A stretch of 55,083 nucleotides of DNA from a virus (Duplodnaviria > Heunggongvirae > Uroviricota > Caudoviricetes): the IMG/VR virus record IMGVR_UViG_2923307698_000002, positions 1-55,083 of that record. One strand, written 5' to 3'. Within the stretch, counting starts at the first letter, position 1; each line of letters starts with the position of its first letter. Below the pieces are notes generated by a model. The model searched no databases, had not been told where the DNA came from, and worked only from the letters and a program-made list of their open reading frames with translations. Both the position numbers and the translations under genes were made by a program. Shown piece by piece: positions 52,883 through 53,670 of the stretch.

Positions 52883-53670
52883 TTAAGCATCACGTATTGC
52901 CAACCTGATTTTTGACTGATACCAATTGGGGCCTTCTGCAATTATTTCTTCCTCAACATGCATGATGGGATGCATTTCAATTTCAGAGTTTTTGACTTTT
53001 AGATCTAGTCCATATTTTTTTGAAATTTGTAAAACTTCATTTTTGAAATCCTTATCTGCGAAAGGTGAAATCCTTATTTCTTCCAACAGATTATTAAGAG
53101 ATACAGGGACTAGTTTTCCCTTTACAGGTGGAGTGTTAAAGGTATTCTCTTGAAAAATAGCTCTAAACTCTTTTTCGTGTTCGAAAGATGGTCTCTTGTT
53201 AAAGAATACATCTGATTCTGGATTGTATTGTTTTATCCAGAAATTTTTGACGTATTTTACGTGTTTTAATTGTAGTTTGTTTAGATTATTATTTTCAAGT
53301 TGGCTTTGGAGGTTTTTTTCTTTGATTTTATGACAACGCCTTTAGCGGGGTTTTTACAATACAGCTTCCACATAGCTTCAGATTCATGTTCGTTACAATG
53401 CCAGCAACTTATATATGTCCTCTCGCTTATTTCCTTAAGTGTCTTTAAATTGAATGCCATGAAAGGCTCTAAGTCCATGCCGGCACCATGAGTAGCGCAT
53501 AGTTTTTCCTGTGTCTCAATGAATTTTTTATAGCCAGTATGTCCCCAAGCAAATTCACCTTCGAACGGATCTTCAAAATTTTTTGCTGAGCAAAAAAATA
53601 AAGCATTTTGTTCGAGTAACATAGAGAATTTCTCTATGTCAAGATATCGCCATATATACTCAGTGTGCAT
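52883..53670 (-). pseudogene. DUF2971-like gene interrupted by frameshift in an A7 homopolymer (possibly phase-variable)
   Basis: AGGAG-preceded ATG at 53670; N-terminal part (129 aa) stops 19 codons after AAGAAAAAAACC near 53310-53322; the -1 frame continues 130 codons to 52883 with family-like motifs (SFEHEKEFR). Confidence 0.55.

Follow-up and report, generated by a model that had tools for sequence, protein, structure and literature searches.

The 55,083-nucleotide stretch of viral DNA analyzed here (hereafter, the window) probably bears a prophage accessory gene, a candidate anti-phage gene, in a heritable loss-of-function form. We propose that the intact gene would encode a 262-aa DUF2971/PDC-S31 protein with a DarT-like fold, situated between the tail fiber assembly gene and the end of a lambdoid prophage that integrated at tRNA-Pro/yejM. 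Replication slippage (slipped-strand mispairing) in a run of eight A residues, which encodes K-K-K-N, would then have deleted one A. The frame would be lost after Lys119 and translation would end at codon 130, leaving a product that lacks the C-terminal half of a single-domain fold, including the invariant E166-x-E168. The case is biologically ordinary, that of a prophage accessory gene in which a homopolymer frameshift of a known kind has become fairly common by drift, and its main uses lie in annotation, in caution for surveys of defense systems, and in a pair of alleles suited to tests of function.

The broken gene and its place in the prophage

The coding strand of the gene is the minus strand, and direct reading places its A7 tract at a plus-strand T7, positions 53313–53319, inside the interval 53300–53330 given by the original prediction. 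The register across the tract in the window is AAG AAA AAA ACC, and the reading frame changes exactly there, as had been predicted. A8 alleles read AAG AAA AAA AAC (K117 K118 K119 N120) and are in frame, while A7 and A9 alleles are out of frame. In the window the open reading frame extends from the ATG at 53670 to a stop at 53281–53283 and encodes 129 aa ending in ...GVVIKSKKK followed by TSKANLKIII. The stop is codon 130, the 11th codon beyond the last Lys codon of the tract, and not 19 codons downstream as was originally stated. Beyond the tract, the -1 frame is open as far as a stop at 52883–52885. Adding one A in silico restores an uninterrupted protein of 262 aa, in agreement with the length of about 262 aa anticipated for an A8 allele. 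The features of the locus are as follows.

52195..52779, plus strand: tail fiber assembly gene tfa, convergent with the DUF2971 gene
52883..53312, minus strand: 3' part of the broken gene in the -1 frame, 143 codons and a stop; it encodes the fold's C-terminal half, which the A7 allele leaves untranslated
53168..53176, minus strand: GAA AAA GAG, encoding E166-K167-E168 in the repaired protein; this invariant E-x-E is part of the block ...SFEHEKEFR... and lies downstream of the frameshift
53281..53670, minus strand: 129 codons and a TAA stop, read from the 5' end of the broken gene; N-terminal half of the fold plus 10 out-of-frame residues
53313..53319, minus strand: A7 homopolymer, the site of the frame change; A8 at loci L002, L007, L008, and L012, and A9 at L006
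53676..53681, minus strand: Shine-Dalgarno sequence AAGGAG, 5 nt upstream of the ATG at 53670, by direct reading
53881..55083, minus strand: DUF4236 protein, 400 aa, the upstream neighbor; its Pfam match is to DUF4236 only

In RefSeq the 5' product of the A7 allele is a ‘hypothetical protein’ (WP_225517690.1) that begins at a later ATG. The WRY.D motif lies upstream of that start and is kept in homologs; given this conservation and the AAGGAG sequence 5 nt upstream of the first ATG, the true start is most plausibly the one that yields MHTEYIWRY.... Other motifs of the N-terminal half are F.DP.EG and Y-I-S-C-W-H...ESEAMWKLY.

Several observations establish that the two halves belong to one gene. 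The Pfam DUF2971 profile (PF11185) matches the repaired protein at 29.4 bits (E = 2.2e-6) over residues 100–170, across the junction. The 129-aa A7 product alone has no match to this profile, and the C-terminal half alone scores 13.8 bits, below the gathering cut-off of 22 bits, so membership in the family is a property of the intact gene only. The repaired protein is also matched end to end by PHROG 34615 (E = 3e-30) and by four PADLOC PDC-S31 models (E = 1.1e-21, 2.3e-10, 7e-8, and 1.7e-6), which have no curated cut-off; an NCBIfam profile search gave no match to the protein. The database search returned 74 homologs, mostly of 240–330 aa, and columns conserved in the family occur to either side of the tract, as the original prediction had claimed for its family motifs: C89-W90 and Y140 are invariant and Y104 nearly so in the homolog alignment, and K159, E166, E168, and R170 do not vary whether 40 or 55 sequences are aligned. 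All of the invariant residues K159, E166, E168, R170, and P203 are downstream of the tract. Finally, A8 alleles that are identical to the window base for base apart from the tract (loci L002 and L008) occur in other E. coli genomes, and the window's 3' part is identical to that of these intact alleles. The profile search of the two halves, proposed at the outset as a way to expose them as unrelated, thus joined them instead, with the DUF2971 domain spanning the junction.

At 99.8–99.99% identity the window matches the tRNA-Pro/yejM-yejO stretch of the E. coli GZ04-0086 chromosome, which holds a complete-looking lambdoid prophage that extends from an integrase (window 11312–12496) to the tail genes. 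At the tail end the order is gpJ, lom, stf (48791–52195), and tfa, followed on the opposite strand by the DUF2971 and DUF4236 genes, and a DinI-like gene and the attachment site lie just past the end of the window. The DUF2971 gene is therefore cargo at the tail fiber end of a lambdoid prophage, a position typical for prophage cargo. The DUF4236 gene accompanies it in every E. coli locus examined and is absent beside the Enterobacter relatives. The tail fiber region is mosaic. A scan for promoters and terminators found nothing beyond the expectation from shuffled sequences.

A scan of species-representative genomes returned one close relative (L013), the others being 27–38% identical. Relatives at 79–82% identity occur in two settings: alone and immediately behind ogr, where a P2-like prophage ends, or within an integrase island beside methylase/HD and Mrr-like genes. 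A DNA search of the phage collection gave no match, and a protein search of it gave a single distant match, in an Acinetobacter phage.

Tract length among E. coli genomes

The locus was found in 121 of 5,426 complete E. coli genomes, each time in single copy and always on the chromosome. Tract state, scored by short exact-context queries, was A8 in 83, A7 in 34, and A9 in one (ECO8855), with another SNP in the query region of the remaining three. The tract is thus polymorphic in length across genomes, and the comparison with related genomes that the original prediction recommended shows that A7 is far from universal: A8 is the majority state (69% of carriers), and A7 accounts for about 28%. 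The A8 copies listed are all annotated as an intact ‘DUF2971 domain-containing protein’, while A7 copies are annotated as a ‘hypothetical protein’, sometimes as two, or are unannotated. In a wider collection, 316 contigs and 526 index blocks have exactly the 129-aa A7 product, 213 contigs have exactly the A8 protein belonging to the window's haplotype, and 878 contigs have another intact call.

The window's A7 state is therefore no artifact: the allele is genuine and common. Single-base homopolymer errors are the commonest errors in long-read assemblies, and the window does have a private 1-nt deletion at 53827/8, beside another A7 run, that is found in none of the 22 comparator loci; the lone A9 genome and the lone secondary indels at loci L009 and L010 (see below) could be errors of this type. 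That the window's own tract is such an error, in a genome that is truly A8 with an intact gene, is nevertheless extremely improbable given the exact A7 product on 316 contigs, which include short-read Logan/ENA assemblies. The 34 complete genomes with A7 come from many laboratories and agree with one another within clades and among replicate assemblies. Over 841 nt the window's gene matches those A7 alleles exactly, and the window differs from its nearest genome, GZ04-0086, at four indel sites in 34.5 kb, so the assembly is not noisy.

An alignment of 12 loci taken from complete genomes was compared with a further 10 loci from other assemblies. The diagnostic SNPs, at 53629 upstream of the tract and at 53251, 53113, and 52870 downstream of it, resolve the following haplotypes.

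HapI, the window's type: A7 in the window, L001, L009–L011, L100, L106, L107, and L109; A8 in L002 and L008
HapI sub-type with two extra SNPs: A7 in L101, L103, L105, and L108
HapII (53629G, 53251A, 53113T, 52870T): A7 in L003–L005, L102, and L104; A8 in L007 and most A8 genomes
HapIII, at other insertion sites: no A7 seen; A8 in L012 and A9 in L006

A7 occurs on two haplotypes, HapI and HapII, each of which is also seen with A8. The simpler reading is that -1 events would have arisen independently on two or more occasions, or that one state would be a reversion, and that a +1 event would have occurred once. Since length changes appear on different haplotypes, the tract is, to judge from these alignments, a slippage hotspot with at least three apparent changes counting A9. 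Recurrent slippage at this tract fits the dependence of indels on run length, the indel rate in E. coli climbing exponentially as runs lengthen (PMC8510543). A single origin of A7 followed by recombination would take a conversion patch of less than 378 bp between 53629 and 53251, which we judge less likely than a second slippage.

The tract is followed differently in different lineages: the relatives have A7-CAC and E. coli has A8-CC or A7-CC, of which A7-CC can be derived from the sequence of the relatives by a single deletion. We did not adopt A7 as the ancestral E. coli state, which needs more events across the haplotypes; other adjacent double changes also occur in this loop.

Inactivation, switching, or recoding

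The original prediction led with a phase-variable switch and also named a genuine inactivating mutation and a sequencing error. The inactivating mutation is the reading that we favor, and the other two are unlikely. A slow contingency switch, in which A8, A7, and A9 states would reversibly toggle a costly or toxic abortive-infection gene of the ADP-ribosyltransferase (ART) type so that defended and undefended lysogens coexist, is improbable, even though part of the pattern is what such a switch predicts. Homopolymer phase variation of defense genes, in particular of restriction-modification systems, is well known from Neisseria, Haemophilus, and Campylobacter. The tract is polymorphic in length (A7, A8, and A9), with two or more independent losses of an A and one gain among different haplotypes, and at least three independent changes at a single 8-nt tract in a modest sample are also expected of a slow contingency locus. 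Both states are common on HapI in public assemblies (213 contigs with the A8 protein and 316 with the A7 product), and the downstream frame of the window is undamaged, such that one +1 slip would revert it.

Four observations favor loss of function and decay over a switch: the run is unremarkable, it is unconserved, its state is stable within clones, and A7 copies have accumulated extra damage. With regard to the first, the gene is 34% GC and its protein 11% lysine, with 23 AAA codons versus 7 AAG. A run of at least eight arises in 75% of synonymous-codon shuffles of the gene, in 46% of codon-order shuffles, and in 22% of mononucleotide shuffles, and a run of this length is therefore within chance for this protein and codon usage (P = 0.75). 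With regard to the second, the relatives at 79–82% identity have either an in-frame A7 (AAG AAA AAA ACA) or an interrupted run (AAG AAA AAG ACA), and distant homologs are without KKK, so there is no sign of selection for a long tract. E. coli is also proficient in mismatch repair, and an A/T run of eight lies at the low end for effective switching.

Clonal sets, as represented by their assemblies, do not mix tract states. Ec-050 and its T0/T5/T20 derivatives, an evolution series, are A7 in six of six assemblies, and every sibling set that could be recognized is uniform (DDG206/220, AR216.2b/AR202.2, CM151382/87, M1/M3/M8/M18, the four OZ5016xx genomes, and the three PEC genomes). A cluster of A7 genomes, several of them of about 4.85 Mb and one from a strain named ST167, is likewise uniform, and its members differ from the window by the same single SNP. 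A7 is kept in prophages with at least eight arrangements of the tail fiber genes, and none of the 31 HapI prophages that complete genomes have at yejM was found to be A8.

Radical substitutions and second frameshifts are confined to A7 copies. SNPs private to A7 lineages comprise four nonsynonymous changes (L78P, A171T, G221E, and P235L), often radical, and one synonymous change, while those between intact haplotypes comprise five nonsynonymous changes, mostly conservative, and nine synonymous ones; with so few sites the contrast gives a one-sided Fisher p of about 0.12. The gene shows two further frameshifts and no others, a T7 to T8 change at 53599 (L009, strain 65COLEC) and a deletion of G at 53005 (L010, strain CUVET20-1667). 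These data are suggestive of relaxed constraint in A7 copies, with the reservation that long-read assembly may have introduced both indels in error.

The locus resembles the contingency loci of Neisseria, Haemophilus, Campylobacter, and Helicobacter in that an intragenic homopolymer sets the frame of a defense-related gene and ON and OFF alleles coexist; a frame-switching tract and repeated length polymorphism among isolates are both found here. It differs from them in that the tract is short (eight), of A/T rather than G/C, of chance length, and unconserved, and in that clones are not mixed and OFF alleles decay. Neither high-frequency, reversible switching within clones, as judged from replicate and sibling assemblies, nor a tract beyond what composition gives or under selection was found. 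We consider it quite improbable, slightly more so than a switch in general, that the A-run is a low-frequency contingency tract by which a lambdoid prophage toggles a toxic DarT-like abortive-infection gene. If it were, lysogens would hedge defense against its cost, such as harm to the prophage's own induction, and E. coli would have a homopolymer-switched defense gene of a kind documented mainly for restriction-modification in Neisseria, Haemophilus, and Campylobacter. The closer parallel is with homopolymer frameshift pseudogenes and indel hotspots of E. coli, which show the same loss of a single base from a gene's longest mononucleotide stretch, with recurrence, clonal inheritance, and decay. 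Nothing essential sets the present gene apart from them, the A7 allele being unusual only in its frequency (28% of carriers) and in that a candidate defense gene has been hit.

It is very improbable that a full-length protein is made by design from A7 alleles, through -1 ribosomal frameshifting or transcriptional slippage. The continuing frame is -1, as it is at A-rich slippery sites like those of dnaX and IS elements, and by direct reading a -1 slip at A_AAG or inside the run would give a 262-aa product with ...KSKEKNLQ.... In E. coli, RNA polymerase is known to slip on A/T runs, and efficient transcriptional slippage generally takes runs of at least nine. The zero frame here is AAG|AAA|AAA|ACC, that is, G_AAA_AAA, with no X_XXY_YYZ heptamer in register. 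The 106 nt around and downstream of the tract (53240–53345) have a minimum free energy of -5.8 kcal/mol (z = -0.59 versus shuffles) and hence no stable structure, and no Shine-Dalgarno-like stimulator is visible upstream of the tract. Moreover, the gene occupies a single frame in 69% of genomes and in all relatives, so that the split arrangement is not a conserved design, and relaxed constraint in A7 copies argues that the 3' half is unused. Like the programmed sites of dnaX (A_AAA_AAG) and IS1/IS3 (A6-7), the tract is an A-rich run with a continuing open reading frame in the -1 frame, but unlike them it is in the wrong register and without stimulators, and in-frame alleles are the majority. 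We therefore rejected a programmed -1 frameshift. Ribosomal or transcriptional slippage may still yield a trace of full-length product, which would not be the design of the locus.

A candidate DarT-like protein and what its null allele affects

The AF2 model that represents the intact protein (P0001, 98% identical) is a single compact domain with a pLDDT of 93.4. It has the split beta-sheet of the ART fold, and the five top Foldseek matches are all DarT, followed by tRNA 2'-phosphotransferase and toxin ARTs. The E-x-E of motif III is represented by E166 and E168, invariant among both the 40 and the 55 homologs. In the model the tract falls at the end of the strand formed by residues 111–117, so the 129-aa product would comprise a partial sheet without E166-x-E168 and is presumably inactive.

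This assignment agrees with a bioinformatic survey in which DUF2971 falls among HYE-clade ADP-ribosyltransferases, close to DarT and AbiGi, its ExE motif III being conserved and its motif I His poorly so (PMC12522546). It also agrees with Aristaios, a distant DUF2971 family member with an ART-like fold that has been shown experimentally to be a single-gene anti-phage system in Lactococcus (PMC11381338). The candidate function of the intact protein is that of a NAD-dependent ADP-ribosyltransferase acting as a single-gene defense of the abortive-infection type.

The likeness to DarT, the toxin of DarTG, which ADP-ribosylates thymidine in single-stranded DNA, comes from the predicted fold; identity is 9–13%, there are large helical inserts, and TM-scores reach only 0.36–0.47. 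No DarG macrodomain partner adjoins the gene in E. coli, where the neighbors are DUF4236 and tfa, or accompanies the Enterobacter relatives (after ogr and in the island), so we discarded a DarTG module. Aristaios, encoded on a Lactococcus plasmid, differs from the 262-aa protein in length (316 aa) and in host, and a tblastn search of plasmids with the intact protein found Bacillus, haloarchaeal, Alteromonas, and other matches and none in Lactococcus at E ≤ 1e-3. PDC-S31, whose models the repaired protein matches, is a PADLOC candidate predicted from association with defense islands; the literature searched contained no mention of it.

About a quarter of E. coli carriers hold the null allele, and counts of presence and absence of PDC-S31/DUF2971 overstate functional copies because RefSeq labels the null allele as one or two ‘hypothetical proteins’ and not as a pseudogene. 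The intact A8 and null A7 alleles on an otherwise identical haplotype are a natural pair for testing protection against phage by the DarT-like candidate. The same prophage has another, divergent PDC-S31/DUF2971 gene at its opposite end.

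Divergent DUF2971 genes at the two ends of the prophage

The prophage carries a second gene of the DUF2971 / PDC-S31 family, a candidate single-gene defence in PADLOC, at the end opposite to the broken DUF2971 gene and adjoining the integrase:

10212-11174, + strand: second DUF2971 / PDC-S31 gene, 320 aa, intact (Pfam E-value 1.8e-9, PADLOC E-value 4e-22)
11312-12496: prophage integrase

The second DUF2971 protein shares only ~21% identity with the product of the broken gene, and its C-terminal tail is Cys-rich (CKKCYEPLNMENKVCGWCG). Two divergent members of a single candidate defence family, DUF2971 / PDC-S31, therefore flank the prophage; of this pair, the integrase-side gene is intact and the other is broken.

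The A tract and other lesions of the cargo region

At window 53313-53320, the sequence of the intact allele in E. coli is A8-CC (AAA AAA AAC C), whereas the relatives at 79-82% identity (L013, L093-L098) read A7-CAC (AAA AAA ACA C). Formally, a single deletion separates the A7 allele of E. coli (A7-CC) from the relatives' sequence, and A8 is one insertion further; the tract may therefore have gone through an earlier episode of frameshift and compensation. Alternatively, two adjacent substitutions would connect the relatives' A7-CAC with the E. coli A8-CC.

Just past the window end, between the DUF4236 gene and tRNA-Pro, lies a DinI-like gene that RefSeq annotates as ‘frameshifted’ in all yejM-site prophages examined (L001, L003-L005, L007, L009-L011, L099), those with A7 and those with A8 DUF2971 alike, and that the prfC-site prophages (L002, L008) carry in intact form. 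This frameshift adds one more old lesion to the cargo region that holds DUF2971. Separately, in E. coli 07-4299 (L012) a 1-nt deletion at the equivalent of window 54553 splits the DUF4236 gene into two annotated ORFs, and the neighboring DUF2971 gene is intact (A8).

The window also has a private, intergenic 1-nt deletion at 53827-53828 (A7-CC to A7-C on the coding strand; GG to G beside a T7 run on the + strand), and the start codon of DUF2971 lies ~157 nt downstream of it. The missing base is present in GZ04-0086, an E. coli genome with a nearly identical prophage, and in 22/22 comparator loci (L001-L012, L100-L109). The deletion may be genuine, as a variant of the promoter or 5' region, or may reflect an assembly error.

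Insertion sequences and a second integrative element

Although otherwise 99.8-99.99% identical to that of the window, the GZ04-0086 prophage is without an IS3-family element that, in the window, lies within the prophage between a PerC-like gene and an N6-adenine methyltransferase gene:

19290-20600, - strand: IS3-family insertion sequence (orfA 20219-20545, orfB 19332-20219)

Conversely, an IS1 adjoins the second DUF2971 gene in GZ04-0086 and is absent from the window. At window 28705, TGTAGTA occurs once, vs twice in tandem in GZ04-0086, a 7-nt difference.

Upstream of the prophage, window 1-9734 holds a second integrative element:

1-927: capsid-family ORF, truncated where the window begins
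2640-4040: AAA_25 primase/helicase-like gene
6650-7909: integrase of the second element
8594-9361: TPR protein gene
9300-9734: gene for a 144-aa protein without family matches

The last two genes overlap and follow the integrase as a pair, and the element looks like a satellite or island carrying its own cargo.
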